Shown here: piece after piece, positions 5,790-33,100 of the stretch
Position numbering within the stretch: position 1 is the stretch's first letter
Layout of the letters: each line of letters begins with the position of its first letter
Assembly: GCA_051294375.1 (NCBI GenBank)
Contig: CM119267.1
Coordinates: 13,631,326 to 13,695,325, forward strand
Reading direction: 5' to 3'
Length of the DNA: 64,000 nt
Source of the DNA: Paraspadella gotoi
Lineage: Eukaryota; Animalia; Chaetognatha
Notes under the pieces: generated by a model
What the model was told of the DNA's origin: nothing
Databases searched by the model: none
Seen by the model: the letters and a program-made list of their open reading frames with translations, nothing else
Program-made: the position numbers and the translations under genes

Positions 5790-8750
5790 CTAATGCTGCC
5801 TTTCATTTCTGTTGCGTGGCCTGTTATCTTCAACGACAATGGTGTGTGAAAGGAAATCGTAAAAAGCTCGACCATGCCTAAATAAAAACAACAAACAAAC
5901 AAGGATTATCATTGAGGTCAAAATTTCTTCGGAAAATATGTTTTATAATTATATTTAATAAACTATTTTAAAGTATACGTATTTCGGGGCTACCGAAAAA
6001 AAATTAAAAATTTCAATCGGTTCCCGACTCAATACAGACAATTATTTTATGCGAGATAATTTAATTATCGAGTACAAAAAGTATTTTGTTCGTATTATTT
6101 CAGGAACTGAAAAGCAAAATACTGTATATTTATAGTATTATCCTTATAAAATAGGAAATTTTCAAAATAATTTTTATAAATTTCTTATTAAAGATCCAGA
6201 TTTTTTATAAAAAGTCCAAAAATATAAAACATGTTATAACAATTTTATATGTTTACAGTGTTAAAATTGAAAAAAGTTAAAAAATTCGCCACCTTTTTNN
6301 NNNNNNNNATGAAGCAATATAGCTATATATTTTTCTTTTTTTCAATTCTTTCAAACAAAAACAACAAAAATATTTTAAATTAATATAAAAAAATTTATTG
6401 AATGATTCTGAATATGGATTTTCGAGTTAGGAAAAAAATTATGCAATTCTAAAAAAATCAGCCTCTCGCCTTTCGATTTTTTTCTAAAGGCTGATTTTTA
6501 AATTTTTTTGATATTTTGATTTTCTATGCAAAACCATTATTCTTAAGAATTTTCACCTTTTTTGACATTTTAAACGCTGAAGATAACATAATTTTTGATA
6601 ACATATTTTATATTTTTGATTCAACTATTTTATAAGAATATTACTACAAATATATTATATTTTACTATTCTGTTCCCGAGATAATATGAACAAAATATTT
6701 TTTGTATGATCGAACAAGGATATTTAGATGTGAGATAGTATGATTAAGTGCTCCACTCTAATGGCCATAGCATAATAAAGATAACATGTCCCAGTAAATA
6801 TTTTTAAATTGAGTTTTTAATTTGCTCTTTAAAATTTTCCTTTTAGCATATAAAGGTGCTTCCAGCACGTATATTGTTGGTTTTGGGCATGCTACAATTG
6901 TTGCTTACATTACCCTTATATATGGCTCTAATCGACTGGGCTTTTGTGCACGGTTTCCCGACCTAGAATACTAGTTATTCCTATTCTTAATAACCTACTT
7001 AATTATATAACAAACGACTAGGGAATGTTAACATATTTTAGTAGTGGTTTTAAGCTGAAATCCGAGGCGGATAAAATTCAACCAACATTGCCTTCTACTC
7101 GGTACCGTGGAGTATTGTTCAAGTATGAAAAAAATAAATCCTCTATGGTGGACTAGAATCCACCAACCGTTCATCAGCGGCCATTGGTGCCGGAGGCAAG
7201 TCATTCGCCTCCCAACCCAAAGGTCCGGGGTTTTAGCCCGGTAATCGCCTAGCAGTTAAGATGGACAGGGCGCTTAACCCGCCTGTAACACGGTGTTACA
7301 GCCTGATCCAAAGCTCAGAGATTGCTTATATTGAACGGTTCTGTCATTAACACATAACAATTATCACTGTCTCTTCACCTCTATCAGAGAGAGAAAACAT
7401 TAATGATTATTTTTATGTATTATAAAATAAAATTCAAAAATTTTTTATTATTGAAATCTAATGGAAAATTTTATTCTAAGTTTTGATTCATTACCCTGTA
7501 GAAATTATTATATGAGGAACTATTTTTATTATTTTTCGCAGCTTTAATATTAAAATATTATATAACATATTTTACAAGTTTCTCATTTTTTTCTGACGAA
7601 TACGAATCTGTTATTACAATTTTTAAAAAATAATTTTAAATTTTATAAATTTATGAGAATATTAATAATATTATTACTACAAAGAAAATAAAATTTGCGC
7701 TACTGTTATGCTAACAATTTTTTTTAAAAGGAACATTTTCTTTAATTACATGTACGGAGGCAGAAAAAAATATTGTTAACTCGCTTAATCTTTTCATAGC
7801 TCCACCCTACTATCTCAGAGAGGCACGGCGACCCTCTCCCCTCTTGGTCACTTCAATACGATACAATTATATACTTTTAAAATAATCAGCCAATCTTACC
7901 GGAAGACGAAAGATGTGGCACAAGCGGGAAATAAGAAAGCAATGAGTAGATTCTTCACGAAGGCGCGGAGAAAGGCTCTACTGAGATTGACGGGCAAGGC
8001 ACGAACAACAAGCACTCGAGAATCGTTTATCGGTTGCACACCGTCGCAAGATAAAACCCGGATATCAAGAGCGCGCTTGCCTGGAGTCGCCCCTGACTTG
8101 TAAATATAAAGAGTTTCGAAGGCGATGACGCAAATCCGATGGATGACCTCAAGAATCATAAGCTCGGTCGTCATGTCAAGCAGAGTCTCGAGACGCATGT
8201 CCTGGATGACGGCGTTGAGATCGTACTTATCGAGGTCAAGAAGTCCAAAACAATCGATAGTCATCACAGTAACTCCGATCTTAAGAATGAAAAGAAGCAC
8301 AAAGTCTATTGCTTCAGCAGCGAACCTCTTCCACAATGGCGGAATGCGGTGGGTCTGAAGCGGTGCCACGTTACGACCATTGGTAATCAATCCTGGTGTT
8401 TTGCATTTCAAAAATTTCAGAACAAATTTTACAAAATCTTCAATGAAATAATACTTACCCAAAAACCTAACATTTACAGGTTGGGCTTGATTAGAAAAGG
8501 AAGAAGTAGAGCCTTCAGCCGCAACGATGTTGGAAGAATTTTGAGGCGTCTGCTGTTGAAGAGAAGACATGATGTGCGAATGCCAATGCCAATAAAGCAC
8601 CCAGTGGTAATATTGCCAGGTCCAGAGAGATAATTCCTTGTTGTAGGCAGCCATTGAAATTTTTTTTTTTCCATCCCTCTTTTTCTTTTCTGATTCGTCT
8701 GTTTTATGAAGCAAAAAGTTTGTTTGGACACCCACCGTCATTTTGGACAT
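5790..8750 (-). CDS. FAM8A1: FAM8A1-like RDD-domain membrane protein; exons 8750-8459, 8392-7900, 5877-5790
   Basis: Motifs WTWQYYHW, IPPLWKRFAAEAIDF, GATPGK, RAFLRAFVKN. Donor CG|GTAAG at 7899 joins acceptor TAG|G at 5878 in phase, giving RHGRAFYDFLSHTIVVE...stop. A 66-nt GT-AG intron lies at 8393-8458. Start codon uncertain. Confidence 0.9.
7146..7377 (+). mobile_element. Solo LTR of TRIM family 1 (tRNA-like module + twister motif)
   Basis: TGGTGG...CTTCA termini, perfect 6-bp TSD cctcta (7140-7145 / 7378-7383); lies in a FAM8A1 intron, antisense. Confidence 0.85.
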
Positions 8751-8830
8751 TCCGAGAATCTGCTTGATTCAATTCAACAAATTAATTGGTAGACATTGTG
8801 TATAAACTATCAATTTCGTTGCGTTTTGAA

Positions 8831-9020
8831 TTTAGGAGAAAAACAAATTTGTTTTTAACAACGAATTTTATTATTGGTAATACATGTTTCGACTCTTGAG
8901 TTTTAGAGTCTTCATCAGTTATGTAACTGTAACTGATGAAGACTCTAAAACTCAAGAGTCGAAACATGTATTAAAAATAATAAAATTCGTTGTTAAAAAC
9001 AAATTTGTTTTTCTCCTAAA
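8831..9020. repeat. Near-perfect ~190-bp palindrome (Penelope-like terminal fold-back)
   Basis: Arms tttaggagaaaaac...ttcatcagtta / taactgatgaa...gtttttctcctaaa. Confidence 0.85.
8930..8973 (+). ncRNA. Minimal type I hammerhead ribozyme motif (mirror copy on minus strand ~8878-8921)
   Basis: taa-CTGATGA-a-gactct...agagtc-GAAAC-AT-GTA-tta; palindromic stem III ACATGT. Confidence 0.7.
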
Positions 9021-10689
9021 AACAAATTAATTCAAAATAAATACAGCTTCCAAGAAAAAAATAATCTTGATTCGTGATAACGTCAATATAAAAATCCACA
9101 TCAACAATTCAATATACTAAATATAAGAAATAATTGAAGGACGCTTTTCTAATCATTAAGAAATTAATACTTAAATCGTTTCGCTGATAAATTAAATTGA
9201 TTAAGTATTTTGCTAGGCGCAGCGTTTCACAAGGCAAATGAGTTCGATTACTTCTTCGGACGCATTGTCACCAGACATTTACATGTCAGATATGCCCAAT
9301 GAAGTTGCCGAATACGTAGTCGTAAAGCGCCTTTTTGTCTTCGTAAAGATCAATGGCTGACAAGCTCGACGGTGGAGAGACGGAAGTGGTAAAAAAACAG
9401 TTGATGACGGGGAACGTCTCGACGTGATATACACTAGGCAAGAAGCGGGGTTTCTAGAAAGGGGGATTGGTTAAAACCGGCTTGGGCGTCCGGAGGACAG
9501 TGATTGAAAAGACGGAAACTTGGCAATAAAGATTTAGGGTGCAATGAGTACATGCCCAACATCAAAAAAATTTAGAGAAGATATGAACCAGAATAAAGCA
9601 AGGCCATTATGATCACTCTTACAGTAGGAAAAACTCAATTCCTTTATTAGAGACGAGAGAAATAGTCAAAACCAAAAGTTTGACTAAGACGTACAGTCGC
9701 GTGGAAAAACGAATTCACGCTACCCTCTTACATATTTCCTCATTTTGTGACCAATATTCTTGCTCTGTCATATCACTAACATATGCGTTACGTTCGACCG
9801 AACATAGGCTTTTTTCACCATGACTGTTGATCATCAGCAAGATCGCATAGACAATCAAAATATGTAAAAAATCAGTCTGATTGTAGTTTGAAACAGTGAC
9901 AAAATTTCTTACCATCGTCATTGTAATTGAGCTGGGTTAAACTTGTTGATTAAAAAAAGATATATTAAAATTCAATTTGTTACTAGAGATCGAGAGCTAT
10001 CTTTTAAACCTTTCATTTATAATAAATTTAAGGAATAACAATCACCCAATTATATTAAAATCAGAACGACAAAACAATTTTGCTTTTTTCGAATTTTTGT
10101 TTTCATTTTGACAAAAAAATTTGTGGTGATTTGTTGGGAGCTTTAACAAAGATCCAGAAAGCATTTTTTGAAAACTTATATTCTTACAACTGTGTGTAAA
10201 TATAAAAAAAAATATTCAAATTTAGTATAGTAAAGTAACTATATTGAATAAAAAAGTTAAATATTTTTCATTTAAAAAAAACATTTAGTTTATGGAGAAT
10301 TAAAAAGAAAAAAATTGTGAAGCAATTTTGCATTTTGAAAAAAAAATAGATTTTTCCCATTCGATTTTGTCATTTTGTCATTTTTTGATATATTCAATTT
10401 TTATACAAAATTATAATTCTCAGTAAGCATGGTCCAAAAAATATTTTTTTAAATTTTTTATCTTTTTCTTTCTTTTATATTTTGATAATTAATTACTTTG
10501 AATGATACAGTAATGATTTTTTTGTTTAAAAAAATTACTACCTTTCTTTTTAGATTGATCTCATATCATTAATACAAATTTATTTTATCAATTAATGAAA
10601 GACAATAATAACAATATAATTCTGTACAGTATTAATAAAAAAAAACAGAAAGAGGAATAAGGATAATAATAAACAAAATCTTAAAAACA

Positions 10690-11580
10690 TAAGGATCGTC
10701 GCAATCGCATTACAAAAATATGGATTGACGACAAATTTTGATACTAAAAAAAAAAATTTCAAAAAAGAAAATTAATTTATAAACAAAGAAAAATGATATT
10801 TTGCGATTGTCAATTAAAAAAAATAATGAAGTACTGAGGAAAATTAAAGTTACAGTTTAAAAAAAAAAAAATAAAAAATAAAAAATAAAAAAGTCAGCAG
10901 ACGTAACCTCTGAGAAAAAAAAAACGAAATAAAAACCCGATGTTGCGATAGCAAAATGATAACATGCACCAATGCGATGCCTAATTTTACGAGTTCAATC
11001 CTAATTCCTTCTGCTGCGCCTTTTTGATTTCTTTTATTTTTTTCCCTCTCTCTGCGTTTTTATTTAAAAAAAAATTTTAATGAGGATTGAACTCGTAAAA
11101 TTAAGCATCGCACTCGTGCATGTTATCATTTTGCTATTGCAACATCGAGTTTTTATTTCGTTTTTTTTGTCAGGTGCTGCATCTGCTGATCAGTTTATTT
11201 TTTGACAATAAAATTTTTTTTTCAGTAACTTTAATTTTCCTCGGTACTTTATTATTTTTTTTAATTGACAATCAAAAAATAGAATTTTTCTTTGTTTATG
11301 AATTAATTTTCTTTTCTCCAATTTTTTTTCTCAGGGGCTGCATCTGCTGATCAGTTTATTTGACAATAAAAATTGACAATAACAAAAAAAACCTTTTTTT
11401 TAAAACTTTAATTTTCCTCGGTACTTTATTATTTTTTTTAATTGACAATCGCAAAATATAATTTTTCTTTGTATATAAATTTTTTTTTCTCAAATTGTAT
11501 TTTTTTTAGTATCAAAATTTGTCTGTCAATCCGGATTTTTCTTATGCGATTGCGACGATCTGTATGCTTTTAAGATTTTT
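10690..11580. repeat. Long imperfect inverted repeat (fold-back element)
   Basis: gatcgtcgcaatcgcat...ttttacgagttcaatcct is inverted as aggattgaactcgtaaaa...atgcgattgcgacgatc. Confidence 0.7.
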
Positions 11581-12157
11581 CTTATGAATAGGGGCAGCCC
11601 GTCTCAATGAGGCGAGTCAAAAATCTAGAATGAGATCCTGCTCAAACGAAAATTTATACATTTTTGAGTATACTTTCAATGTACAAAAAATTTCTTTATT
11701 TTTTAATATTTATAGAAAGAAAATGAGTTCGACCCTATTCAGATTCGTCTAAAAACGAGTTCAGCTCTGAAGCGGCTATCCAGCTTCTCTCTCTCGTTAT
11801 TCGATCTCTTGCGTGATCGTGCGTTTTTCTAAAAATTCTGATTATTTTTTCTTTCTAAAAACTTTTATTTCGCCATTTAATCCGCGCTTTTTTCTCAATA
11901 CAAAATCCCAAATTTACATCCGAGATTTTCGTGGATTTATTCTTTTTCTTTCTATCTCTCTTTCACTCATGCATGCATTTGTTTGTTTTATTTACGATGA
12001 ATGATTCATCGCGTCAATGAATGACTATCATCGCATCAATGAATGACTATCATCGTATCAATGAATGATTATCATCACATCAATGAATGCAATATTTGGT
12101 TATCTTCGCATCAATAATCAATTCCTATTACATCAATAATTCGTTATCGCATCAATC

Positions 12158-12394
12158 TGTGGAAGACGATGCCGCGAGCAGTTTACCGTCCGTTGCACAC
12201 AAGGTCCCGAACTTCGGATCGGGCTGTAGTCCGTCACTACAGGTGGGTTAGACGCCCCGTCCCGCTTTTACTTGTGTGAATCAGCAGGGCGCGAACCCGA
12301 GTCCTTTGGGTTGGGAGGAGCTCGTGCTACCTCCGGCGCCATAGGTGCTGCTGATTCTCGGACGAGTAGTGGGGTATGAAATACTACCACTACA
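12158..12394 (-). mobile_element. Solo LTR, related family 2 (tRNA-like module + intact twister motif)
   Basis: TG...CA ends, 4-bp TSD aatc on both sides; shares gccggagg, cctcccaacccaaagg, gggttc and gggacggggcg with family 1. Confidence 0.8.
12196..12278 (-). ncRNA. Putative type-P5 twister ribozyme (family 2)
   Basis: cacacaag-taaaa-gcgg-GA-CGG-ggcgtc-U^AA-ccc-ACC-[tgtagt gacgg actaca]-G-cccga-U-CCG-AA-GU-tcggg-ac-cttgtgtg. Predicted cleavage between 12250 and 12249. Confidence 0.8.
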
Positions 12395-15139
12395 AATCAT
12401 TCGTTTTTTTCCCCGGATTTTTTCATTAATTTTCTTTGATAGCTGGCTGGCTCGATCAATAATGCTTTTAAGATTGTTTCATAATGGTAAAAAGCGGCTT
12501 TGCAATGGTTTAATGATAATATGCGCGACTGCGATGATTAGACGGATATGCTCACAGCATATTCTGGCTCTATAATTCACTTAGTCAGTCCGTCCCCCCA
12601 ATCTTGTCGGGCATTCACTTATGTCAGAACATCGAATTATGATAAATTATGCAAAAAAAATTATGTATGTCCGTTCGTCAGTCTGTCAGTCCATCCCACC
12701 TTAGCAAAAAACACCAATTACTCGTGACTTGACGGATGGATTGGTATGAAATTTTGTGTGTGGGTAGTAAAGTGTGTGATTGAGCTGGAAATCAAGTATT
12801 TTTAGTTTGAAATTCCTTCACACATCCTAATACGGCATTTTTAAAAAAAATAAGCATATTTTAATTTAATTTGTTTGATAGACGAACTTAAATACACAGC
12901 TTGATAAAAAACAAATTAACATTTACTTATATTGTGCATTTATTTGAATTACAGTAAATACAGTTATTAGATACAAAATCATATGTATTCATCTATATAC
13001 TAATAATTCCAGATACATAAAATAATTATGCAAGCCATAGGGATTACATCAATTCCCTTTGATTCCTAATATCAATATATATTTAAACTGTTTCCAATAT
13101 TTTGACGGCACAAGTAAAACTAAAACTAGATTTAAAATATGCAGATCAATACAATTTCAAATCTGAATAGCACATAATGGCCTCCTGCAGACAAACGGAA
13201 TATTTTTAGCTTGACTGGGCAATAAGGCGTAGTAAAATATCTAAATTTAATTTTAACTTTAATTAAAATTATAAAAGTAATAAACAAACAACATTATATT
13301 AATGAACATTTCTGTATAAAAAAAATTATTATAAATTTTACAATTTACGCATTAGGCCATATTTATACATAATATTAATAAAATATTAAAATTTCAAAAG
13401 TTTTTTTTTATAATTTTTTGCAGATTTGGATTTGTTATAAAAAGTTGATAGAAAGAAATATAACTCTTTTTTAAAAATTATTTCATTAAGTGGGTTAAAA
13501 ATCAGAAAAAAACTATATTTTAAGCTGAAAATTAACTTTTTATATTTTAAATATAGTTTTTCTAATTTTTAACCTACTTAATGATAGAATTTTTAAAAAT
13601 AAGTTCTATTTTTCGATTTTATAAGGATAATACATAATATATATATATAAATAAAAATAAATAGCCTAATGCGAAAATTAAAAAACAATTTTTTTTTACA
13701 AATTAATGTTCACCGATGGTATTTTGTTCATAATTGACTTTTAAAATTTTGTACATAACTTTCACTACGCTCTAGTGGGCAATGTTAGTCGCTTGCTATA
13801 AAAAATGGCAAAATAAGAGGATAGGTTAAAAAGTTAATGAGTAATCATATTTTATTGATCTTTAAGTTATGCCATTATTTTTGAATTTTACATTAAAAGT
13901 ATTCAAATATATATTTTTAACCAAAAATAGCTTAGAGCAAAACATTTAAAAAATATATGTTTTTCAAATTTTTTTTGTTAATTTAGTCATGATTGATGAA
14001 CCCTAAACAAAAAAAACCTTTACTTTTTAGTATAATTTCACTTTGAAAAAAAAATTATCACGCTCTGTTAAATCGTAAAATAAATTAATCATAAAATGAT
14101 TAGAATTAAAGATCTGATATTAAATAGTTTTATATATTTTAAAAATCCTATGACTTATTGCTAGATACTGCCTCGTAAGTACGCCACCGTTAACCAATAA
14201 CCATGTTACATTTACATTTACTAAACTTGTTACTTCATTTTGCAATGCTGAGTTGTTTAATAGGTGTTAAAATATCTTAAAGTATAGTGATCCCGCCTAA
14301 GAAAATTAATGAAAAAATCCGGTAAAAAACGAATGATTGATGCAATAACAAATAATTGACGTAATAGTAATTGATTTATTGAAGTAATAGTAATTAATTG
14401 ATTGATGTAATAGTAATTGATCGATTGATGTAATAATAATTGATTGATTAATGTAATAATAATTGATTGATTAATGATTAACGTCCGCAACAAACTAAGT
14501 ACCAGAGGTCGGTGATTGGTTAATCCATTTAATTTTATTTTCCCTCTTGCGTCGAATCTCAGTTTGCATAGTAATATAAAATTTTTAAAATTTTATAATA
14601 AATAATAATTGTTTTAAATTTATTTTAATTGATATTTTTAGGTTTGAGGTAGAAAATGAATTGTTTGTTGATGTACAACGAGTTTTATTAAGAAACATAA
14701 ATTTCGGACTTTAATTTAAGCCTTCTGCGCAAAAACGAATTGACTTGTGAAACAAATATTTTACAGACTCTCTCTTCAAACTTTGTAAACATATTTGTTT
14801 CACAAATCAATTCGTTTTTGCGCTTATGAAGGCTTACATTGAATCCGGAATGTCTGAAATTTATATTTCTTAATAAAACTCGTTGTACATAAACAATTCA
14901 TTTTCGTTCATTTTTGTTATATTTTTTAAACGGTAAGCAATTGGGTTAGGGGTGGTTTGGGTTAGGGATTAAGGGTAGTTAAAGTTAGGGAAAGTTTTGA
15001 AATAAAATTTGTGATATGAAGATTTGTTACCCTTACCAGTGTCATTTATTTTTGCATAACAAGATTTCTATACGTCGCTCATAAAAAGCGAAAAACAAAT
15101 AACGATCGCAAAATCCCGGTCGGCGAATGTAAAAATAAG

Positions 15140-18184: not shown

Positions 18185-21100
18185 TTAAAATGGATTGTTG
18201 GTGTTTCGTTGCAAGGCGGGAACCGGATCTTGGAATCCCCACGACTGCTGAGACGGGGCCGTCGTATTCGGAGGGTTCGAGGCACCAAAGGAGCCAAACT
18301 GATTGGCCGGCGACAGGACGGGGCTGTGAGAAGCCACAGGGGGAGCGGCCCCAAAAGGACCAAGACTGGCAGGTTGCAGCTGGGCGCCGTTGTCGAATGG
18401 ATTAAAATTAGACTGCAATGACAAAAATTGTATAACAAAAAATACGTACAATAAATCACTAGTCAAAAATTATGAAATCTACGATTCACCTGCGGTTGAC
18501 TGAAAATTCCAGAGACTGCTGGGGTGGGCGCAGCGAAGCTCAAATTAGGACTAGGACCCCCAGCGGCTGGAGCCCACCCGGAAGCTAGAGGGGCCGCTGT
18601 AGCCGCAGAGGATATTGGTCCCATAGGGCTCCAATCTGCACCTCCGGTACGCTTTGAAATGGGACTTCGATTGAAATCTCTTTTTGTAGTTGAAGCCCCT
18701 GTTCGGAAAAGATTAAAAAATTATAATTAGAAATTTTAAATTAAAGATTACAGAGAAAAGATGGCATAGCGACTCCCCCCCCTCTCCAAGACAGTGTTCC
18801 AATACCAGGTCCCGTTCCGTAGCTGCTAGAGGGGGTTAAAGAAGTTACGGATAGTCTTTTTCAGCTCCCTTAGCGCCTTATCCACTCTCCACAAAGCATT
18901 AATAAAAAGTAAGAAACAAATTTCTAATAGGACTTGCAATAAAAGCCATATAAGTCACAGAAAAATCGTGGGTCATCCAACTTCTGACCGAACTAATGAA
19001 CCGCTTTGAATTAATTATTGAAGAGACAGTAATTATTGTTGTGTTAGTGACAGAACCATTCAATATAAGCTTATTAAGCAATCCCTGAGCTTCGGCTCAG
19101 GCTGTAACACCGTGTTACAGGCGGGTTAAGCGACCCGTCCCTCTTAACTGCTAGGCGACCACCGGGCTAGAACCTCCGGCACCAATGGCCGCTGATGGTT
19201 GGTGGATTTTAGTCCACCATATTATATTATTATGAAATTGGTACAACCAATATATAATATATACAATAATATATATTAGACACTTTTTTGACTACCTTTG
19301 AAGCTACAGATCATAACTGACTACCATTCTATTTGTTTTTTTCTGCTCTATATATGAGACTTTTGATATACTTTTAAAAATTATTGGCTCTTCCCAGTAG
19401 CGTCAAAGTGCCACGAGCGTTAAAGTTCTAATTTTTTTCATTTTTATTAATTTTATTTGTTTCATTTTTAGTAGGGAAGTCTGGTGATTTTTTATTTTTA
19501 TTAAGAAAATTTCTGCCAGGCCTCGTAGACACAGCTAAATCTTATATTTACATTTGTAATAATTGGGACTAATAAATTTTGATATATTCTGTCTATAACT
19601 ACTCAATGTTGATCTTCAGTATCATAAATATTGACGAAAATATTTTTTTTTCAAATTAATTTATTTTAAATTTTTTTGTCAGATGAATTTTTTTCATTAA
19701 TTCAAATAAATATACAGCGGTCATGCACTGATTCCAATTCTGTTGGGTTTAGCCTATCTTTCAAGCACATAACGAAAAAAACTTGTCATAGTAAGAAATA
19801 AAAGCATTTATTCCAAATTTTTCCTCAAAATTTATCATCCTTTTTGTTTCTGACTGTTTTTGCCAAACATGCCCTTTAAAATTAGAAAAATAAAGATTAG
19901 CTAATGAAAGTCTCAGGTACATTTCGTTGCAGGAACAAAGAAAATTCATTGATATCATAGTCTCAATATGGAGCCTTGAAATACCTAATTTTCTTCGTAA
20001 TTTACACCTTGTATTATAATAAAAAATGAAAACAATAATTTAACCATACAGCTACATGCATTAGCGTGTTATTAAAAGATTGTAGTTGTTTTTTAATGAA
20101 TTTTTTTTATATTAATATAGCTAAAGGCATTATGCAATGGTTTTAATTTTCACCTGAAGATGACCACAATTTAAAAATCTGATAATACAGTGTTTTAGTC
20201 CTATGTTAATAGTTTTTAAATCAGGGGGAACAAAGTTTGAACTCATAAATTTTCATATTTAAATCATATGTTTTTTAGGTTGCTACATGATTTTTTACTT
20301 TTTTTTTTTTTCAACAGTAACGGAACATCTTGCTTTCAAGGCATATCGCGTCTATGCGCGTCTTCGTAGGTCAATTTTAAAAACAGATTTGGATTCCTCA
20401 AACGCATATTTACTAGTAACCTGACGACATCAAGTGACGGAAGTTTGGTTCTCTTATTATATCAAAATGGAAAATTAATTCTAATATTTTTAGTTAATAT
20501 CTATCGATTTCAATGAAAAAAAAGGCACTAGATATATTGCATGTGATTAAACAATGTTATCGCAATAATAATTTTATTAATTTTATATATTTTATAAGTA
20601 TTTTAAGTATTTTTATTCAGTGAGTAAAATAACTTTTTATTCGCTAATTTTTATCTCGGACGCTTATTTAATATAATGCCGTTTTCCAATAAAAAATGGC
20701 AGTAACTTCAAAAGTTCTTAATATATTTTGTATTTTGACAAACCGGAAGTGACGTCATTAACCCAAGTTGTAGTTCATTCAAATAGCGATGTCGCCGGCG
20801 ATTCACGCACGAGTCGCAGGTGTGGTTAATGACATCACTTCCAGTTTCTCTAAATACAAAATATAGTAAGAACTTTTGAAGTTATATAAATTTAAGTTTT
20901 GAAAACCTAAAATAATTTTTGATTATTTTGGAAGGCCAAGACGATGCAGTTCTACTTTTCGAAGAAAAACATGGTGCTGCTTTTTTGTGAAGATTCATCA
21001 GGGAACTTTTTCATTTGAATATTTATTATTTGATTGTGTTAATTTCCTTTCGTTTCGTTGTTTTTTGTAGATTTAGAGAAAAACAAAGTTTATTGGTTTA

Positions 21101-24100
21101 TTTTCAACAATTTTTATTTTTACATAGGGACATAGCTGATGAAGGCTTATACATAAAGCCGAAATGTAAAAATAAAAATCGTTGTAAATAAACAAACTTT
21201 GTTTTTCTCTAAATTATTATTTGATAAAACATTTTGTTATATATCTATTCTTTTTAATTAATTATTATTAATTGATCAATATTTATTATTCATTACTTTT
21301 CCTTTTCCGTTATCATGTGTTATTAATAAAGTCTGTGGTTCTTGATCATTGTTAAATTAAAATTAGGTTGCAAAGGAGTTTGTATCTGCATAAACAATAC
21401 CTATTACCCTATAAATACATAAAAATAATTTAAATAGGATCTTTTAAGATATTGAAGAGACAGTGATAATTGATAAAAAAGTTGTTTTTAAATGGAAAAA
21501 CAGAAAAAAACCCGTTTTTTCCCCAAATATAGAAGCCCAGGTTAATTCCCCCCCCCACGCCTGGGAGCTCGATCAGGCTGTAACACGTGTTACAGGCGGG
21601 TTAAGCGCCCCGTCCCTCTTAACTGCCAGACGACCACCGGGCTAGAACCCCGGACCTTTGGATTGGGAGGCGAATGACTTGCCTCCGGCACCAATTGCCG
21701 CTGATGAACGGTTGGTGGATTTTAGTCCACCATACATCCCCCCTCCCGTAGGGAGAAGTCTGTTGCGTCTCTTCAGTGAATTGTTGTTGGGTGAAAGTTC
21801 GTCACCAAGTTGAGGCATGTCGCCTGATGTGTTGTGGGCGGAAAGTGCATCGCCAGGTTGAGGCATGTTGCCTGAAAGTGTTGTTGTTGCTGTTGTGTTC
21901 GGAAGTCGGGTTCACTGGCAATGAAGTCGCCTGAGCTTCGGATCAGGCTGTAACACCGTGTTACAGGCGGTTTAAGCGCCCCGTCCCTCTTAACTGCCAG
22001 ACGACCACCGGGCTAGAACCCCGGACCTTTGGGTTGGGAGGCGAATGACTTGCCTCCGGCACCAATGGCCGCTGATGGAACGGTTGGTGGATTTTAGTCC
22101 ACCATAATATTTTTGAAAAAAAAAGTCTTTTGATAACTTACGATTTGTAAAATTATGTTTTCCACTTATGCATGCAGACATAAAAATATCTTTTTAATAT
22201 AAAAACTCACTGACAATACAAAATTCTAGCAAGAAATGAACTGATTACATTAAAACAAGTTTGAGCAAACAATGCCGGATCTGCCCACGATCATTAGCGG
22301 TAATTAATTAATACAAACTATATAAACTAAAACAATAATTTAAATAATAAATTAATTTGATCCAAAATGTTTGTTTTTAGGTCTTTTCGACACTGACCAC
22401 GACAAAAGCAACGACAACGATGATGGCGATGACGACAATAATGCCGATAAAGATTGACTTGATTAAATAATTAATTTATTGATTAATTAACCGATTAATT
22501 ATTTGATTAATTAATAAATCTTATCTTGCATTTACATTTAATAGAAAAAAAAGAAGCATAATCAATTAGTGAAACAGGTTTTTTATTTTTTCCATTTAAA
22601 CTCATTTCCACTCAGACGATTTCATCGAAACTTGATTTCCAGCTTAATCACACACTTTCCTACCACATTCAAAATTTAAAGTCAATTGTAAGTAATTGTA
22701 ATTGGCGTTCAAATAGTGAAATATATTTTTTTTGTTTTTTCCATTTAAACTCATTTTCACTCGCACGATTCCATTAAAACTTTATATCCAACCCAATCAC
22801 ACACTTCTCTACCCACACACAAAATTTCATTCCAATCAATCCATCCAATCACGAGTAATTGGAGTTTTTTGCTAAGGTGGGACAGACAGACGGACATCGT
22901 TTTTTTGCATAATTTATCATAATTCGATATTCTGACATTATATATGTTAATGCCTGACAAGATTGAGGGGGCGGACCGACGGACCGACAAAGTGAATTAT
23001 AAAGTCGGGATCTGCTGAAAGACTAAAAATTAAATCTAACAAGAACTTGATCAAGAAACTACAGATATATTTTAATTTTGGCGCTCGTGGCGCTTTAGCG
23101 CTTCTGGGAAGGGCCAAAAATTTTAAAAAGTCAAATAAAAATAACTAGTTAGATAGAACAGAAAAGAATGCAGTCCAGAGTCCACTTATGATTTTTATCT
23201 GTAAGATAATCGTATTTAAATGTGTCTAATATATATACAATATCATATGGTCGTTATTGTTCAATGATAATTGTTCAAACTGGTTATCTGGTTACAGTCA
23301 AGAATCAGAAACGAGATGACCATAAACCCTGTGTCACAGGAAATCCATCAGCAAACCGAAAAGATTTCTTCGAAATCTAAATAACATATGATACACAATA
23401 CAAAATTTACCGGGGTTGATCTTTAAATTTCCTGCTAAATTTTTGAGGGAATCTTCAAGATTGTTTCCTTTAATGAGCTTTTCCGTCTTGATTTCATTGT
23501 TGTTGGGATTTTCAATAAAAGGATTTCCAACTGAGGAAGCGTTTGAGGCGGTACTGCCAACTGGAGCTGGTTGTAGTATTTCGCCAAAAGGGTCAAATGG
23601 CGCGCTCTACGAATAATATCAATAAGGAAATAATATGTTTAAAAAATCTTAAAGTATAAAAAAAAAAAGATTGATGCGAAATGAATTAATAGTAATAGTA
23701 ATTGATTATTGATGCGATGTTAACCAAATATTGATGCGATGTTAAACAAATATTGATGCTATGATAACCAAATAATAATAATAATAAATATATTATATTT
23801 TTTAAATTATATAATTTATATTTTGATTATATTTAATATTTATTATATATTATAATATATAATATATTTAAATAATAAAAAATATATTTATATAATTCAA
23901 ATTATTTTTAAAAATATTAAAATAATAAGCAAAACTTTTTTTATTTCTTGATCACATCCTTACTATTTGGTAATTTAACTGAATTATATTTAGCATTCTC
24001 ATTAAGGTGATTTTAGTTAAAACTCAGATTATGATTAGGGTTAAGGTTGAGGTAGATTAGGGTTAGATTAGGGTCGTGTTAGTTTGGTTTAGGGTCGAGT

Positions 24101-27100
24101 TGGTTTGCTTTAGTGTTGAATTAGTAGTAATTAGAATTAGGGTTGAATAGTTTGGGGTTAGGGTTAAGGTTCAGTAGTTTAGGGTTACGGTTAGGGTTAA
24201 TGTCTATTTTAAGGTTAAGATAAACAGTAAGCCGGCATTAGGGTTAGGGAAGGTACTGGCAATAGACATTAGGGATTAAAGTTGAGGTACGGAAATATAA
24301 GGGAGGCCCGGTCCCGGGTTAAGGATTGGGTTGGGAGACATGGAGTTAAACGGGAGGCCCGGGTTATGGTTGGGGGAGAGGCCCGCTGTTGAAGCATTCA
24401 AGGCGATTAGGGTTAGGGTTGAGGCACTGAAATATATGGGAAGCCCAGGCCCGGGTTAGAGTTGGGAGAGAGGCACGGAGTTGAACGGGAGGCCCGGTTT
24501 AGGGGAGAAGCCCATTGTTGATGTATCAAGGNNNNNNNNNNTGGGTTGAGGAATGGAGATATACTGGAGGCCAGGGCCTGGGTTAGGGTTGGGGGAGAGG
24601 AATGGAGTTGAATAGGAGGCCCTGGTAAGGGTTAGGAAAGCCCACGGTTGGCGCGTCGAAGGTGGTTAGGATTGAGGCATAGAAATGTATGGGAGACCTA
24701 GGCCCGGGTTAGGGTTGGGGGAAAGGCATGGAGATGTACGGGAGACCTGGGTTAGTGTTTAGTCTGGAGGGAAGGGCTCACAGGTGATGTATTTTTTAAG
24801 GCGGGCCAAAATTGAACACTTTTCATAACTTTTAATTCTCTCAAATAAATTCTTTTTTTCCTTCTATTACTAAATCGATTTTCAATACAACTTTTTGAAT
24901 TAGTTTATTGGGTTGTTGCACTGAAGCTTTTAAATATTTATTAATATGAAATTGGTACAACCAATATAAAAATTATCCATTCATTTAATAAATAAGCTAT
25001 CTTGCCCCTGACTTTGGACAGGCTTTGGTGGTTTAAGGCCTCCATCACTCTTACAAGATAATGACATAGCAGGTCGTATTTATCCTCATGTCTCAACTTC
25101 AGCCGCGAGCTTTTCCTTTAACTTGCGCCTTTCATTATATTCATTACTTTTATTACTGGCGAGGTCACCAGTGAGGGTACGGGTGACACCACCAGGGCTT
25201 TGGCAATATCGCCATAATAAAGTCGCTAACCAACTAGAACCAACAAACAATTGTGGCTCATACGTGAATCGCCGACGATATTGCTATTTGAATGAACTAT
25301 AAGCTAGGGTTTGGTTTGAAGTTCAGAAATAAACAAAAAGGGTTAAAATACAAGGGTTAAGGTTCCAGCTTGGCATGAGATAAGAGCTCCGGCCAGATAA
25401 AAATTCTGGCTGCGGCTCCGGCAAAAAAGCTCGGCTCCCGCGGCTCCAGCTCCACATCCCTAATGAGAAGCCTAATCTAAATTTTTAGCTACCTATGGTT
25501 ACACAGGAGCTATTTTCAATGTTAAAACCGTGACGACGATAACAAAGCAATACTAAATGGTTATCTACGCCCAAGATGGGCCTTAACTTAAGGCTTAAGC
25601 CCGTCTGGCGAGATAAAAACAAAATAAAGGGCAGAGCTTTGTCATTGTGTCCCACTTAGAAATTTTCTAATTAGTGAGATTCTCTGCTCTAACAGAAAAC
25701 GTTTGGAATAGCGAAATACCGGCATACAGTCGCGCAGAAACTTATTTAGATTTCAAATACATAAACACGTAAAGTTTTCGATTCTGGCCTTTACTTAGTA
25801 CATAAAATTACCACCTAATGGCTTTTTATACCTGAGGATTGACGGTGGACATTTGAGCTCCAATTGGAAAGGCGTTATTAAACTGAGCATCAGAGGCAAA
25901 TAGGTTTGATGAGGCCGCGGTAGCCACTGCAGGAACAACCCAAAAGCAATTAAACAAAAATCTCTCTCACTCTGACGCCTAAAAATAACCTGACAAATCC
26001 TGACCATTCTGAGGCCCAAAAAGATTGGCAGAGGGCTCAGGTGTCGTGCCAAAGGAGCTCTGTCCCGCAGAGCCGAAAGGGTTGTTTCCGGCCGGGGCGA
26101 CGCTCGATGACGTTGATATTAGTGCGAACAGGTCGTCGCTGGGCTTTGCCGTAGTCGCCGCCACAGCATTAGAGGAATCTAGAATAAATCACATGCGTGG
26201 TAAAAGTAAAATTCGAACAAAGATGTACGAACAGCATACCCGTTGATATGTCGATGCAAGTGCCGTTCTGAGAGACGCCGATTGCGGGAGACGTTGTCGC
26301 TGAATCGCGTCCCGAAGTATCGAACGCCGGACTTTCGATGGTTAATAAATCCAAAGCAGAGGACGTTAGTCGCGAATCGGCCTCGGCCTTTTAAAGGGGG
26401 TAGAGTAATTGAATAACAGAATGTTGTTAGCATGTCCGCAATAAATGGGGCTTCCAAAAATGCTCTTTCGCGAAACGATTAAGTGGGAGAAATACAAAGG
26501 TTTTCAAGAAATTGAATTTTCCATTAAAATTGTATATTTAATTTTTTTAAAAATTACCTTTAACGCCTCCATCCTGGCAGCCTCTTCAGCTATTAGTCTC
26601 TTCTTTTCCGCCTCAGAAATATTGATCACCGGTGTAGTAGAACCGCTCCCGCCAGCACCACTGCCAACAGTTTCTCCTGCAATGTGATAAGTACTAAGAA
26701 ATCTTTCCCTTGAATTTCAAGTTGAAATCAAACTTTCAATGTGTTACAATAAATTAGAATTTGTTACGAAAAAAAAAACATGATGGCAAGGAAGTTTTAT
26801 GGCTTATTTTTACATTCGCCGACCGGGATTTTGCGGTCTGTTATTTGTTTTTTCGCTTCTTATGAGCGACATATAGAAATCTCGCTACTCAAAAATAAAA
26901 AAAGGATACTGGTAAGGGTAGAAAAACTTTTTATTACAAATCCCTAACCACCCCTAAGCCTAACCACCCCTAATCCCTAACCAACCTTAACCCAATTGCT
27001 AACCGTTTAAAAAAACATAATATAAAAATATTGTTTTTCCTTTCCTTTCTTTTCCTCATTTGTTTACGTACAAGGAGTTTTATTAAGAAACAAATTTCAT

Positions 27101-30100
27101 GTTTCGGCATCAATGTAAACCTTCATCCAGCGCAAAAACGAATCGATTTGTAAAAACAAATATTCACAAATTTTGAAGTTTGAAGAAAGAAAAGGAGAAA
27201 GAAAGTGTGAAAATATTTGTTTCGCAAATCTGTTTTTGCGCTGATGAAAGCTTACATTGAAGCTGAAACATGTCCAAAATTTATGTTTATGTTTATGTGG
27301 GGCAAACTGCCAATTAACATTGTAAATAAACAGACTTTTAATTTGCATACATATTTGCCTAAAAACGATTTAATTGAATCCCATCTCCCGGATTCGATCC
27401 CGGGACTTATTATCCAAGAATNNNNNNNNNNNNNNNNNNNNNNNNNNNNNNNNNNNNNNNNNNNNNNNNNNNNNNNNNNNNNNNNNNNNNNNNNNNNNNN
27501 NNNNNNNNNNNNNNNNNNNNNNNNNNNNNNNNNNNNNNNNNNNNNNNNNNNNNNNNNNNNNNNNNNNNNNNNNNNNNNNNNNNNNNNNNNNNNNNNNNNN
27601 NNNNNNNNNNNNNNNNNNNNNNNNNNNNNNNNNNNNNNNNNNNNNNNNNNNNNNNNNNNNNNNNNNNNNNNNNNNNNNNNNNNNNNNNNNNNNNNNNNNN
27701 NNNNNNNNNNNNNNNNNNNNNNNNNNNNNNNNNNNNNNNNNNNNNNNNNNNNNNNNNNNNNNNNNNNNNNNNNNNNNNNNNNNNNNNNNNNNNNNNNNNN
27801 NNNNNNNNNNNNNNNNNNNNNNNNNNNNNNNNNNNNNNNNNNNNNNNNNNNNNNNNNNNNNNNNNNNNNNNNNNNNNNNNNNNNNNNNNNNNNNNNNNNN
27901 NNNNNNTTTTAAGCTGAAAATTAACTTTTTATATATTAAATATTAAAGCGTAGTGAAAGTTACATACAAAAATTTTAAAAAACAATTATGAACAACANNN
28001 NNNNNNNGATATAAAGAAATATATATATTTTGAAAAATTCCTTCATTAAGTGGGTAAAAAATTAGAAAAAGCTATATTTTAAGCTGAAAATTAACTTTTT
28101 ATATATTAAATATTAAGGCGTAGTGAAAGTTACATACAAAAATTTTAAAAGACAATTATGAACAACATACCATCAGTAAACATTAATTTGTAAAAAAAAT
28201 TAATTTTATGCTTTTTAATTTTCGCAGTAAGCTATATTTATATATAGTACTATCCTTATAAAATCAAAAAATTTCAAAATAGGCTTTTTTTAATTTTGAT
28301 TGCAGATTTGAATTCCTCGTCAAAAGTTGCTAAAAGAAAATATAAATCATTTTTAAAAATTCTTTCATTAAGTGGGTTAAAAGTTAAAAAACCATATTTA
28401 ACATATAAAAAGTTAATTTTCAGCTTAGAATATAGCTTTTTCTAATTTTTGACCATTTTTATCAACTTTTTATGACGAATCCAAATCTCTAAAAAAATCT
28501 TAGAAAAAACTGTTTTGAAATTTTAACATTTATTGGTTTAGTACTAATGTAAATATGGCCTACTGCGTAAATTGTAAAATTTATTATCAATTTTTGTATT
28601 ATATAAATGTTCATTAGTATAATATTGTTCGTTCCTCACTTTTAAAATTTTAATTAAAGTTAAATTTAGAAATTTTACTACGCCTTATTAAATATAGTTT
28701 TTTAAAAATTATATACTGAACAAAAAAATGTATATTATTTCGCAAACTGAGACTCGACGCTAGAGGCAAAACAAAATTAAATGGATTAACAAAGCACCGA
28801 CCGGTGGTAGCTAAAGATGGTTGCGGACGTCGAATAGTAAAGTTACCCGAAAGTATTTTATTAAGGTCTAAACAAAATAAATAAATCGACGAGAGCAACG
28901 ACCAGCAAAATCTGCATTCTGCAAATTAAACTCAAAGCCAACGGAAGAGGAACCCTCTTCGCAAAAACGATCATAACATTCTAATGGGATGAGGAAGTTT
29001 CGACCCAAAAACCTCAAAAGAATAATCATATTTCACCTCTCCGCTATCATGAAACTATCTTACTAATCTTTAGCATAATCGTCTCCAAAATTCTGATCAT
29101 AAAACAAATATAGGATAAATATTATTAACTGGATATCTCAATCTAATGAATTCGCTTTATAACTAAATAGAACTTAAAAACAATTCTATCTTGTGCATCT
29201 GTAAAATGAATGTAATTTCCGGTTAAAATTTCTAAAAGTAAAACATATTCTCAACACATTCTATGTTTACAAGTAAAAACCGGTGAGAACTTTTGCCGTT
29301 CTCTTCAGTTTCACGGATTTCGTGAGCACTCGATCCTCACAAACATTCTCCTCTAATTCTCAAATCGGGAAACAGAGATCAGGATTCTAGATGTCGAACA
29401 AAAATGACGCAAAAGATAATTTTCTTTTCCATTCTATAATGCATTATTTTCAGAAAAAAGAAAAAAAATGTCAATGAAAAAATAAATGCTAATTTAGGAA
29501 AAATCAACAGTAAAATTCTATTTATTAAAAAAAAAATCAAGTAGTGACGAGGATTAGAGGTTAATGATATTTTTCTTTAAAAACTAATTATAATAAGTAT
29601 ATAAATATTAAACATATTAAGTAAAAAAAAGATTCACATCCGATATCCTTGTTGGCAAAAGAGTGAACGAGAGCGAGGGATTGAATAGGGAGAAGAAAAC
29701 AGTCCTCTGAGCCGACCAATTAGAAACGATCAACTTTTATAATCAAACGGAGAACATCATTAAACTTAGTTCTTTAACAATGCAAACTTAAATAAAACTG
29801 ATTTTTCAAATAACTAAAAAAAGTAATATACGACGTAAGACAATTTTGGCCTCGCGTTTAAATTCTAAAAACACGTCTAAGTATTGTGGCTAAATACCAA
29901 TGCTCACAAACAACTCACCGATGCTTCACATCGCTAATCATTAACCAATAATCATCAAATCTGGATCCTCGTGTTGTGTCCAGAAAGAAAACCGATTCAC
30001 GAGTGATGCCGAGCGAGAGCAATCAACATCTGAAATCAGTCGTTCCAAGAGCGTCTTTACGCCATCAGGAACCACATCGATTTAAACTTCTGGGTGAAAA

Positions 30101-33100
30101 CGTCAAACGTAAAACGTTAATATTTTTTATCGTTTGTTTAGTCGCGACTATTTTTTTTCTTGGGGCAACTCAAAATTTCGGTATAAAAATGCAAGGTTGG
30201 AAAGAATATGCAACCTTTACTGAAAACAACTCAACCGAAGATATGACTATCGTTGTTCGGCCCCAACGCCGAGCACTCGAGACACAGCTATTCACTTTGG
30301 ACCAACAAGACGAACGGAAAAAACGCGTAAACGAGATTTGCGACCTGTACGATTTAAGAGGTTCTGCGTTGGAGTTGGATAACTCAGACTTGAAACAGAT
30401 TATTGTTGATGACAAAAACGAAATACTCTATTGCTACATTCCCAAGGTAACCAAGTCCAAAAAATTTAGGGTGGACCAAAATCTACAAACCGTTCATCAG
30501 CGGCCATTGGTGCAGGAGACAAGTTATTCGCCTCCAAACCCAAAGGTCCGGGGTTATAGCCCAGTGGTCGCCTAGCAGTTAAGAGGGACGGGGCGCTTAA
30601 CTGGCCTGTAACATGGTGTTACAGCCTGATCCGCAGCTCAGGAACTTCTTATATTGAACTTTTCTATTAGTATCACTAACTTATAATAATTGGGAGAGAC
30701 AGAATAATTGTTATATCCCATTATTAGTAAGTACAACTAATTTAAGAATCTCGTCTCGACAGTCATAAAATTATTAGTCAGAATTTTTTGTTTAAGTAAT
30801 AAAAGTAAAAGGAAATAGCAGCCAATTAATTTAAAACTTATTCCCTGCAGGTCGCCTGTACCAATTGGAAAAGAATCATGATGATTCTTACTGGCGCGGC
30901 TAAAGGCGAAACTAACCCTCTCGAAATTCAGGCATCGGACTCACACATAAAGAGCGGGTTTAAAACTCTTAATCAATATACAGACGCCGAAATTGTATTC
31001 AAAGTTAAAAACTACCTAAAATTTATGTTCGTGAGGCATCCATTTGAACGTCTCCTTTCCGCCTACAAAAACAAATTCAGTGAGCGCTACTCGGTGTATT
31101 TCCAGAAGAAGTTCGGCCGAAAGATTATTCGACGCTACCGGCCAGATGCCAAAACTGAGTCAATCGTATTCGGAAATGATGTAACGTTTCGAGAATTCGT
31201 CACCTACGTTCTCGACCCACGCACCCACGTCGAGGGGCTGAATGAACATTGGCGTCAGTATTATAAACTTTGTCATCCATGTCATATTGGTTATGACGTA
31301 ATCGGAAAATACGAAACCCTATACAGCGATGCCAAACTCGTATTGGATCGTGCCGGCATTGGTGACCGAGTGACATTTCCTACCTACTCGCCAGTGGTTG
31401 CTCAAAAACTCAAAACAATTGACTACATACGAGATTTTTATGCAACGATTCCAGAACAGGATTTGAAAGACTTGAAAGCTACTTATGGCTTGGACTTCGA
31501 ATTTTTCGGATATAAATATCCGTTTTTGAATGATTCCTCTCCACAATAGAAAATAAACAAAAATACGAAAAAAACAAACAAAAAACACAGCTTTAAATGG
31601 TTGAGCGTCTTGAAAAAATAATTCATGAATCTGAGTATCGACTAAAAATAATTAATCCATAGAATAGTTGTTAGTGACATTACGAAAAAAAAGTCTTCTC
31701 TCATAAATAATGTTTTGTTTTGATCTCTAAAACTTATCTCGCCTACACTTGTACACTTATATTTATGACCATTAAACCACACTATCTCAATTAATCGCAT
31801 GCAAACTTCACACGGCTGTAGTATAAACTTACTAGAATGCATTAGCTTTTAATTTTTTTTTTTGTCGCTCATAAAAATTAAATTATGATCACGTTAAAAA
31901 GTTATTAAAAAAACTAAAGACAAATTAAAATAAAATTAAGACGCCGAAACTCGCTGTCATGCATAATCTAAAGTAAAAAGTTTGAGCAAACAATGTCGGA
32001 TCTACCCACGATCATTATCTGTAATTAATTAATTTATTTAAGTTAATTTAATTAATTAGGCAATTAATTAATTAATTTGATCCGAAATGTTTGTTGATTA
32101 AATTGATGATTAATTAATTATTGATTAAATTTCATTCCAATCCATCCATCCAATCACGAGTAATTGGTGTTTTTTGCAAAGGTGGCGGACGGACGGACGG
32201 ACACTCTTTTTTTTGCATAATTTTTTCATAATTGATGGTTCTGATATGAAAATAAGTGAATGCCCGACAAGATTAAGGGGGCGGACCGACGGACCGACAA
32301 AGTGAATTATAGAGTGCAATGTGTAAGCACCGACACGGCTTCGAATCTCCCGCCACAACATTAAAAAAAATAAATTCTTAAAACAAGTTTGATGCACAAC
32401 AATGTCGGTAATCTGCTCTAGCGATAATTAAGCGNNNNNNNNNNNNNNNNNNNNNNNNNNNNNNNNNNNNNNNNNNNNNNNNNNNNNNNNNNNNNNNNNN
32501 NNNNNNNNNNNNNNNNNNNNNNNNNNNNNNNNNNNNNNNNNNNNNNNNNNNNNNNNNNNNNNNNNNNNNNNNNNNNNNNNNNNNNNNNNNNNNNNNNNNN
32601 NNNNNNNNNNNNNNNNNNNTAATCAGCTAATCAGATGATAAATCACAATATTTTAAAAACAAATTTTTTAATCGCATCATTTTTTCAAACTTGCATCATT
32701 TTTTCAAACTTGCATCATTTTTTCAAACTTGCATCATTTTTTCAAACTTGCATCATTTTTTCAAACTTGCATCATTTTTTCAAACTTGCATCATTTTTTC
32801 AAACTTGCATCATTTTTTCAAACTTGCATCATTTTTTCAAACTTGCATCATTTTTCACATTAATTAATTAAAACATAAGTATTAAGTAATCATAAATAAT
32901 AAAGATTCAAGTAAATGTGACTTGTTTTTTCCATTTAAACTCATTTCCACTGGCACGATTCCGTCAAAACTTTATATCTAGCTTCTTCACACACTTTCCT
33001 ACCCACACACAAAATTTCATTACAATCCAACCACCCAATCACGAGTTATTGGAGCTTTTTGCTAAGGTGGGACGGACAGACAGACGGATATTTGTTTGCA

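Follow-up and report, generated by a model that had tools for sequence, protein, structure and literature searches.

A stretch of the Paraspadella gotoi genome that can be folded, on its minus strand, into a close relative of the twister ribozyme raises two questions: (i) is the likeness that of a working twister, given that the P1 hairpin is absent, and (ii) what would a self-cleaving RNA do in the LTR of a miniature retrotransposon, which is where it lies? We addressed both in a 64-kb window (the whole stretch of DNA analysed here), which consists of AT-rich animal DNA with a few host exons and many repeats. The exons are those of an RDD-family gene (7896–8750, minus strand), a CHST11-like sulfotransferase gene (29976–31549, plus strand) and an ANTH-domain gene (60743–61030, minus strand). 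Long inverted repeats that are either MITE-like or hairpins (8825–9026, 10744–11334 and 35479–35612) give sub-threshold plant miRNA matches in Rfam.

A type-P5 twister-like fold at 12196–12278

A first-pass annotation read this interval as a twister in the P5 permutation, shared by three repeat families, of which the copy here represents family 2. Its parts are as follows.

12196–12278, minus strand: type-P5 twister-like motif of family 2, from parsed pairs and fold
12278–12271 with 12203–12196, minus strand: P5
12265–12262, minus strand: P2, 3′ strand
12261–12260, minus strand: catalytic GA
12259–12257, minus strand: T1′
12251–12256, minus strand: self-complementary 6-nt linker at the position of the P1 hairpin, predicted intermolecular P1
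12249–12250, minus strand: predicted cleavage site U^A, by analogy to twister
12247–12245, minus strand: P2, 5′ strand
12244–12243, minus strand: T2
12242–12224, minus strand: P3
12223–12219 with 12210–12206, minus strand: P4
12218–12211, minus strand: L4 (8 nt)

Every element listed in the first-pass annotation is found here, and the strand, which had been left unstated, is minus. The elements run in the order P5, P2 3′ strand, GA, T1′, 6-nt linker, UAA, P2 5′ strand, T2, P3, P4 with L4 and P5′. This order is shared with the type-P5 twister, as are the catalytic GA, the U^AA cleavage triplet, the L4 octaloop (U-NNN-AA-GY, here U-NNN-AA-GC(U)), T1 and T2, P4 and the open P5 (RF02684; PMC5408937). 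The 3 bp of T1 and the 2 bp of T2 are fully Watson–Crick in family 2 and in both clean family 3 copies, and the minimum-energy fold of the family 2 motif contains P3, P4 and P5 (z = −2.5). The register proposed for P5 is also the one in which the Rfam P5 model places family 3. A type-P5 twister-like fold at 12196–12278 is thus supported by the sequence.

Two departures from the type-P5 twister had been recorded at the outset and are borne out in all families: P2 consists of 3 bp and a bulge rather than four Watson–Crick pairs, and there is no P1 stem with a loop but a 6-nt palindrome, which has a zero-nt loop in the Rfam alignment. To these we add an AC/GU T2 in families 2 and 3, and a closing pair of L4 that is A-U in both families 1 and 2 and G-C in family 3. 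P2 normally has four pairs, the G-C pair closing L4 is described as essentially invariant, and P2 defects may, as one review suggests, disturb the active site (PMC5408937). Natural twisters, 1948 of which were covered by one published test, tolerate damage to P1, P2 and most of P4, but neither pseudoknot mismatches nor altered catalytic bases (PMC11662667). The mutation-sensitive parts of that test, the pseudoknots and catalytic bases, are undamaged in the family 2 copy, and we consider self-cleavage by the motif probable from its sequence. The annotation thus had the twister type right, but it overlooked the palindromic segment at the P1 position and the tRNA-headed TRIM LTR around the motif.

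Covariation, descriptor searches and Rfam scores

The compensatory changes cited in favor of the fold are correct on parsing. The third T1 pair is G-C in families 1 and 2 and A-U in family 3, the T2 pairs are G-C/C-G or A-U/C-G, the first P2 pair is C-G or A-U, and P4 has either 5 bp, with U-A or C-G as the third pair, or elsewhere 4 bp; the pair changes in P3 and P5 between families are likewise as described. Over five aligned rows, from which the structure itself was derived, 93.9% of cells pair, against 28–42% in slid controls. The three families cannot be counted separately, however. Families 1 and 2 are homologous, with 71% identity over 139 nt and two-sided changes in 4 of 23 pairs, and the covariation therefore represents support from about two lineages. 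The two family 1 examples originally cited are also flawed: 21929–21999 is a family 1 copy whose first P2 pair is mismatched, and 7251–7326 is a decayed copy in which two of three T1 pairs are broken and both P2 and P4 contain mismatches. In contigs of sequencing run X1, a run of uncertain type, the counts of variants are 0 of 60 in the twister core and 7 of 116 in the remaining LTR, a difference that is not significant (p = 0.10).

A descriptor that leaves the letters of T1, P2 and P4 free, allows a short list of T2 dinucleotides and a linker of 2–25 nt, and does not require a palindrome has three matches in the window (12265, 25050 and 39941) and none in 200 block-wise dinucleotide shuffles; it was composed after the motif had been seen. 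It misses every family 1 copy because each has at least one defect. In the Rfam check proposed in the annotation, the Twister-P5 model (RF02684) matches family 3 at 25.8 bits, below the gathering score of 37.6, and leaves families 1 and 2 unmatched. The proposed custom covariance model, built from families 1 and 2, recovers family 3 (E 2e-4, 22.2 bits), but antisense self-matches score nearly the same (21.4 bits). RNAalifold did not recover the twister from the whole-LTR alignment, in which the rows are error-rich and the pseudoknots lie outside the model, and the Rfam scan of the window found no hammerhead family.

These scores bear on a reading in which the LTR RNA is structured but not catalytic, serving for packaging or dimerisation, and resembles a twister by chance. 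LTR-element RNAs dimerise through palindromes, and the linker could then be a kissing palindrome of the retroviral type. The sub-gathering Rfam score and the antisense matches are in keeping with such an RNA, but it would not account for the GA, the U^AA, L4 and both pseudoknots standing in twister register with compensation, nor for the empty shuffles in the descriptor search. We regard it as very improbable.

The motif lies in the LTR of a miniature retrotransposon

Self-BLAST of the window identifies eight family 1 LTR copies, one of family 2 and four of family 3 plus one tail. The insertions of families 1 and 2 and the sites relevant to their delimitation are listed below.

12158–12394, minus strand: family 2 solo LTR, 237 bp, TG...CA, from filled versus empty site
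12395–12398, minus strand: 4-bp target site duplication (TSD), 5′ copy
12154–12157, minus strand: 4-bp TSD, 3′ copy
14290–14395, plus strand: empty site, where a paralogous copy of the host repeat lacks the insertion; the target tetramer is single, at 14335–14338
7144–7377, plus strand: family 1 solo LTR, 234 bp, TA...CA, perfect 4-bp TSD, twister decayed
19019–19221, minus strand: internally deleted solo LTR of family 1, perfect 4-bp TSD, adjoining a family 3 tail
21453–22106, minus strand: family 1 full LTR-internal-LTR element, perfect 4-bp TSD, both LTRs damaged
21921–21735, minus strand: internal region (187 bp) of the 21453–22106 element
21974 and 21603, minus strand: predicted cleavage U positions of the 21453–22106 element
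44839–45453, minus strand: family 1 full element, error-rich, imperfect TSD
45234–45055, minus strand: internal region (180 bp) of the 44839–45453 element, tRNA-Trp-like primer site (PBS) first, polypurine tract (PPT) last
30467–30680, plus strand: family 1 LTR copy whose 3′ end has decayed, likely within an intron of the CHST11-like gene
46990–47343, minus strand: very degenerate family 1 LTR plus internal region, stopping at an assembly gap

The host of families 1 and 2 is the LTR of a miniature non-coding LTR retrotransposon with the layout of Helenus elements, to which the candidate ribozyme is added. A perfect 4-bp TSD flanks the single family 2 copy and three of the four parsed family 1 copies (two more family 1 copies lack a usable 3′ end), where two random tetramers of the window would match with a frequency of 0.008. 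Family 1 LTRs end in CA but begin with TA rather than TG; 6- or 7-bp TSDs considered for this family were replaced once it was seen that a TA start yields perfect 4-bp duplications. The two full family 1 elements, of 654 and 615 bp, both have a clear PPT. The PBS of the 44839–45453 copy is a near match to a tRNA-Trp PBS, the tRNA compared being that of honeybee rather than of the host, and the PBS of the 21453–22106 copy is garbled; an X1 contig joins an LTR end to a PBS-like start. Family 2 is known only as the solo LTR, and none of the family 1 copies in the window is intact. Small indels found throughout several copies resemble long-read errors and, we infer, may be such. Readings of the repeat as a simple SINE or as a tandem non-LTR retrozyme were dropped, being contradicted by the TSD, PBS and PPT evidence.

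Three side observations concern these insertions. Members of families 1–3 are frequently inserted in an abundant dispersed repeat composed of a GGAC/AGAC microsatellite and ATTA runs, often beside a 22–23 bp tandem array (451–1597, 12538–12800, 22541–23017, 32880–33127, 52733–53195, 55690–55986 and others); this repeat resembles elements of the Helentron/DINE type. At 19219–19273 a family 1 LTR adjoins an isolated family 3 tail, placing both twister-bearing elements at one AT-rich site. Lastly, one X1 contig, of depth 3, returns from 21976 to 21601, and in it bases flanking the predicted cut recur as short tandem repeats; this single low-depth record could reflect slippage at a ligation junction or an error.

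A tRNA-like stretch heads the LTR

Upstream of the twister, each LTR contains a tRNA-like stretch. In the family 2 copy this stretch and the predicted larger folds are placed as follows.

12287–12341, minus strand: tRNA-like stretch, likely a Pol III promoter; box A 12341–12330, box B 12297–12287
12186–12365, minus strand: predicted long-range stem, 12365–12359 with 12192–12186, enclosing the tRNA-like domain and the twister
12366–12394, minus strand: predicted 5′ terminal hairpin of the LTR

The terminal hairpin and the long-range stem are predicted in both families 1 and 2, from differing sequences. With the threshold at 90%, ARAGORN calls two genes in 64 kb, both of them family 1 heads; at 80% it makes 35 calls, mostly spurious, among which two further heads appear as tRNA-Gly(CCC). 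Boxes A and B are found together twice, where shuffles average 0.01. Box B has GGTTC in both families, and box A deviates from TRGCY. The family 2 head is homologous to the family 1 heads but weaker, being uncalled by ARAGORN at thresholds of 80% and above and unmatched by the box A/B pattern, and the Rfam tRNA model does not match the tRNA-like stretches. Sense-strand runs of four or more T are absent from three of the four elements checked, so that Pol III could read through both LTRs.

Family 3 and the tails of Naiad elements

The remaining family carries the motif in a different setting.

24998–25060, minus strand: twister-like motif of family 3 lacking P3, matched weakly by Rfam Twister-P5
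39837–40045, plus strand: family 3 insertion with twister-like motif at 39931–39993; 5-bp AT-rich TSD, no TG...CA ends
about 58800–58880: empty site for the 39837–40045 insertion
49409–49516, plus strand: degenerate family 3 copy
63619–63728, plus strand: degenerate family 3 copy

Family 3 copies have their 3′ ends in common and unlike 5′ parts. Together with the 5-bp AT-rich TSD and the lack of TG...CA, this suits a non-LTR-like insert, distinct from families 1 and 2 and possibly Penelope-dependent. No Naiad ORF with GIY-YIG and RT domains was found in the 25 of 152 ORFs scanned, nor by eye in the translations around family 3.

Naiads, autonomous non-LTR elements, do offer a comparison. Among the 18 viewed of the 54 consensuses in the supplement of Craig 2021, five have a twister core at the 3′ end (PMC8557442). 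Each of these five tails, by file order from three mussels and two clams, has two palindromes between T1′ and the cleavage triplet, where the families here have one. The three mussel tails share the 3-nt P2 strand with the families here and the AC/GU T2 with families 2 and 3. Searching the Naiad consensuses for eight octamers of the L4 type seen in the window gave no twister, and it was inspection of the 3′ ends that revealed them; in the accessible text of the published report, Naiads are described only as lacking canonical hammerheads (PMC8557442). In the tail preceding Naiad_Lpol, a long insert separates the two halves of a hammerhead core (CUGACGA ... GAAA) (PMC8557442). Six other tails in File S5, preceding Naiad_Sglo, Olur, Tgra, Pmar, Mcor and 2_Skow, share a distinct conserved motif. 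In it, a stem capped by a GCUYAC loop comes after a palindrome, and by file order it belongs to oysters and their relatives and a hemichordate. This motif may be a second candidate self-cleaving RNA and may resemble twister sister.

The occurrence of one twister subtype (3-nt P2 strand, AC/GU T2) in mussel Naiad tails and in family 3 invites the reading that a Helenus-type LTR simply acquired a Penelope-like, Naiad-type twister tail, in which case the ribozyme would be weak, blocked or irrelevant and the TRIM would move by reverse transcription of linear RNA with strand transfer. Published Helenus families move without a ribozyme reported in the accessible text (PMC10886601), the insertion signature of family 3 differs, and most copies in the window are decayed. 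Against this stands the comparison of families 1 and 2, which are only about 71% identical yet keep all pseudoknot and stem pairs, with the four two-sided changes noted above, and this retention despite divergence argues for selection on the fold within the LTR lineage. A mere passenger is therefore, in our estimation, quite unlikely.

A palindromic linker in place of the P1 hairpin

The linker reads GGCGCU, GGCGUC or AGGCCU, and each of these hexamers pairs fully with a second copy of itself. Self-pairing is 6 of 6 in six of seven parsed copies, across all three families, and includes a central pair that changes from C-G to G-C. Of all 4096 hexamers, 216 are self-complementary; rearranging the letters of the family 1/2 linker gives 24 such sequences out of 60, and rearranging those of the family 3 linker 24 out of 180. 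In unconstrained two-copy folds, computed with ViennaRNA, which ignores both pseudoknots, families 2 and 3 form a domain-swapped dimer held together by intermolecular P5, P2 and linker helices, the linker pairing with probability 0.95–1.0; the 1-bp P1 of the monomer has a probability of at most 0.03. Three damaged family 1 copies folded in pairs have a two-copy minimum-energy structure that differs from the swapped twister.

The self-complementary linker in all families, as in hammerheads that cleave as dimers, suggests that P1 is likely to form between two copies. One-pair hammerheads with a palindromic tetraloop, among them amphibian cases, cleave as dimers (PMC7229834), and dimer cleavage is also reported for minimal hammerheads with such a tetraloop (PMC6765202). 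The energy gain is not a specific argument in family 2, where 13 of 36 non-palindromic linker permutations give an equally favorable dimer (17 of 156 in family 3); the Naiad tails provide the stronger, comparative argument for a dimer.

A dimer may nevertheless be unnecessary, as P1 is dispensable in twisters, with P1-less forms cleaving near the wild-type rate (PMC5408937). Each LTR would then cleave alone as an active monomeric mini-twister, with no P1 or with a single P1 pair around a 4-nt loop; the palindrome would be incidental, and the element would still be an LTR retrozyme. The tolerance of P1 and P2 defects among the 1948 natural twisters (PMC11662667) and the unspecific dimer-energy control of family 2 both fit such a monomer. 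It leaves unexplained why self-complementarity is retained in three different hexamers, and as longer palindromes in five Naiad tails, the loops are of neither the GNRA nor the UNCG type, and the predicted probability of a 1-bp P1 is low, as given above. We judge the monomer possible but rather unlikely, and lean, though not strongly, towards cleavage that depends on the dimer.

A model for the twister-bearing LTR

The reading that we favor, with some reservation, is that a twister-like fold in a Helenus-layout LTR cuts the RNA to unit length for conversion to a circle, probably by way of LTR copies paired through their palindromes. Transcription by Pol III would begin at the tRNA-like stretch in the 5′ LTR and run through both LTRs. 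The two twisters would then swap halves, with P5, P2 and a 6-bp P1 forming between copies, and each would cut at U^A. Cleavage in both LTRs would release a piece made of one LTR and the internal region, roughly 420 nt; the distance between predicted cleavage sites is 371 and 400 nt in the two damaged full copies. Such a piece has no terminal repeat, so that normal strand transfer would be unworkable. One core of the swapped dimer is arranged like the later circle and would keep the ends of the piece together, and their joining by a host ligase would give a circle containing one whole LTR. The lone twister of the circle would cut poorly, because its P1 partner is missing. A Gypsy-type reverse transcriptase primed by tRNA-Trp would copy past one full turn, and integrase would insert the product. 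The primer site and the 4-bp duplication point to a Gypsy helper, although none of the 25 of 152 ORFs scanned against Pfam is an autonomous Gypsy partner. As a solo LTR, the 12196–12278 copy could find a dimer partner only in trans.

Several known systems each share part of this design. Helenus/TRIMp3 elements (Kojima 2024, PMC10886601) have the same short non-coding LTR-PBS-PPT-LTR structure with a tRNA-like stretch in the LTR, and they also share solo LTRs, a tRNA-Trp-type PBS, a size range (311–1263 bp) that includes the elements here and, in the animal families, the 4-bp TSD; Fig. S2 of that paper gives a tRNA-Trp primer site for a Gypsy and a Helenus family. The differences are that the accessible text mentions no ribozyme for Helenus and that the published LTRs compared mostly end a few tens of bases past box B, whereas here about 130 nt follow, with the twister (PMC10886601). 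Twelve short twister motifs searched in the Helenus supplement had no stem context among the matches listed, although line breaks may hide matches.

Plant LTR retrozymes (Cervera 2016, PMC4918200) likewise have a ribozyme in each LTR, a PBS, a PPT, a 4-bp TSD and solo LTRs, and are non-coding; unit-length RNA arises between their two cleavage sites and is made into circles, and the circular route outlined above follows the model published for them (PMC4918200, PMC7761336). Their ribozyme is a type III hammerhead, their PBS matches tRNA-Met and their circles measure 600–1000 nt (PMC4918200), where the present elements have a twister-like motif, a tRNA-Trp-like PBS, an animal host, a tRNA-like stretch and a predicted circle of about 420 nt. 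Retrozymes seem promoterless, according to a review (PMC7761336). Animal retrozymes lack LTR, PBS and PPT, and are tandem arrays with type I hammerheads (PMC7761336); they and the minimal hammerheads have in common with the present case an animal host, a one-pair stem with a palindromic tetraloop, active in the hammerheads as a dimer, and units of a few hundred nt (PMC7229834, PMC7761336, PMC6765202). Naiads differ further in that the ORFs scanned here include no Naiad protein. The T-variant twisters of Perere-3 in Schistosoma (Liu 2021, PMC8501958) are also animal retroelement twisters with an imperfect P1, and are shown to cleave. They are of type P1, stand at the 5′ end of an autonomous LINE and have P1 completed by target DNA, and neither a circle nor a dimer is described in the accessible text (PMC8501958).

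Novelty and implications

The individual parts of this element are known, and their combination appears to be new. Among the papers listed in full-text literature searches, from which subscription journals are largely missing, none concerns a TRIM-borne twister, an LTR retrozyme of animals or a natural dimer of twisters, and the accessible part of a 2026 preprint on animal retrozymes (10.64898/2026.07.22.740005) does not mention twister. Exact-pattern scans gave no match to the family 1/2 pattern and 13 to the family 3 pattern in viral contigs, and eight matches in metagenome contigs, none of which has a P4 stem by eye. Many more such twisters may be hidden, since Rfam misses them.

Taken together, we tentatively propose an animal LTR retrozyme: a Pol III-driven TRIM that replicates by way of a circular RNA excised by a domain-swapped dimeric twister. 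If this is true, the palindromic P1 would tie cleavage to the transcription of both LTRs and shield the finished circle, and the circle would explain how ends are rebuilt in an element whose promoter sits inside the LTR. One twister subtype would have passed between Penelope-like elements and elements that depend on Gypsy, and the twister, if it naturally works as two copies, would join the hammerhead as a ribozyme class that uses the palindrome trick. The LTR retrozymes described are plant elements with hammerheads; a twister in an animal LTR element would mean that the ribozyme-and-circle route has arisen again from other parts.
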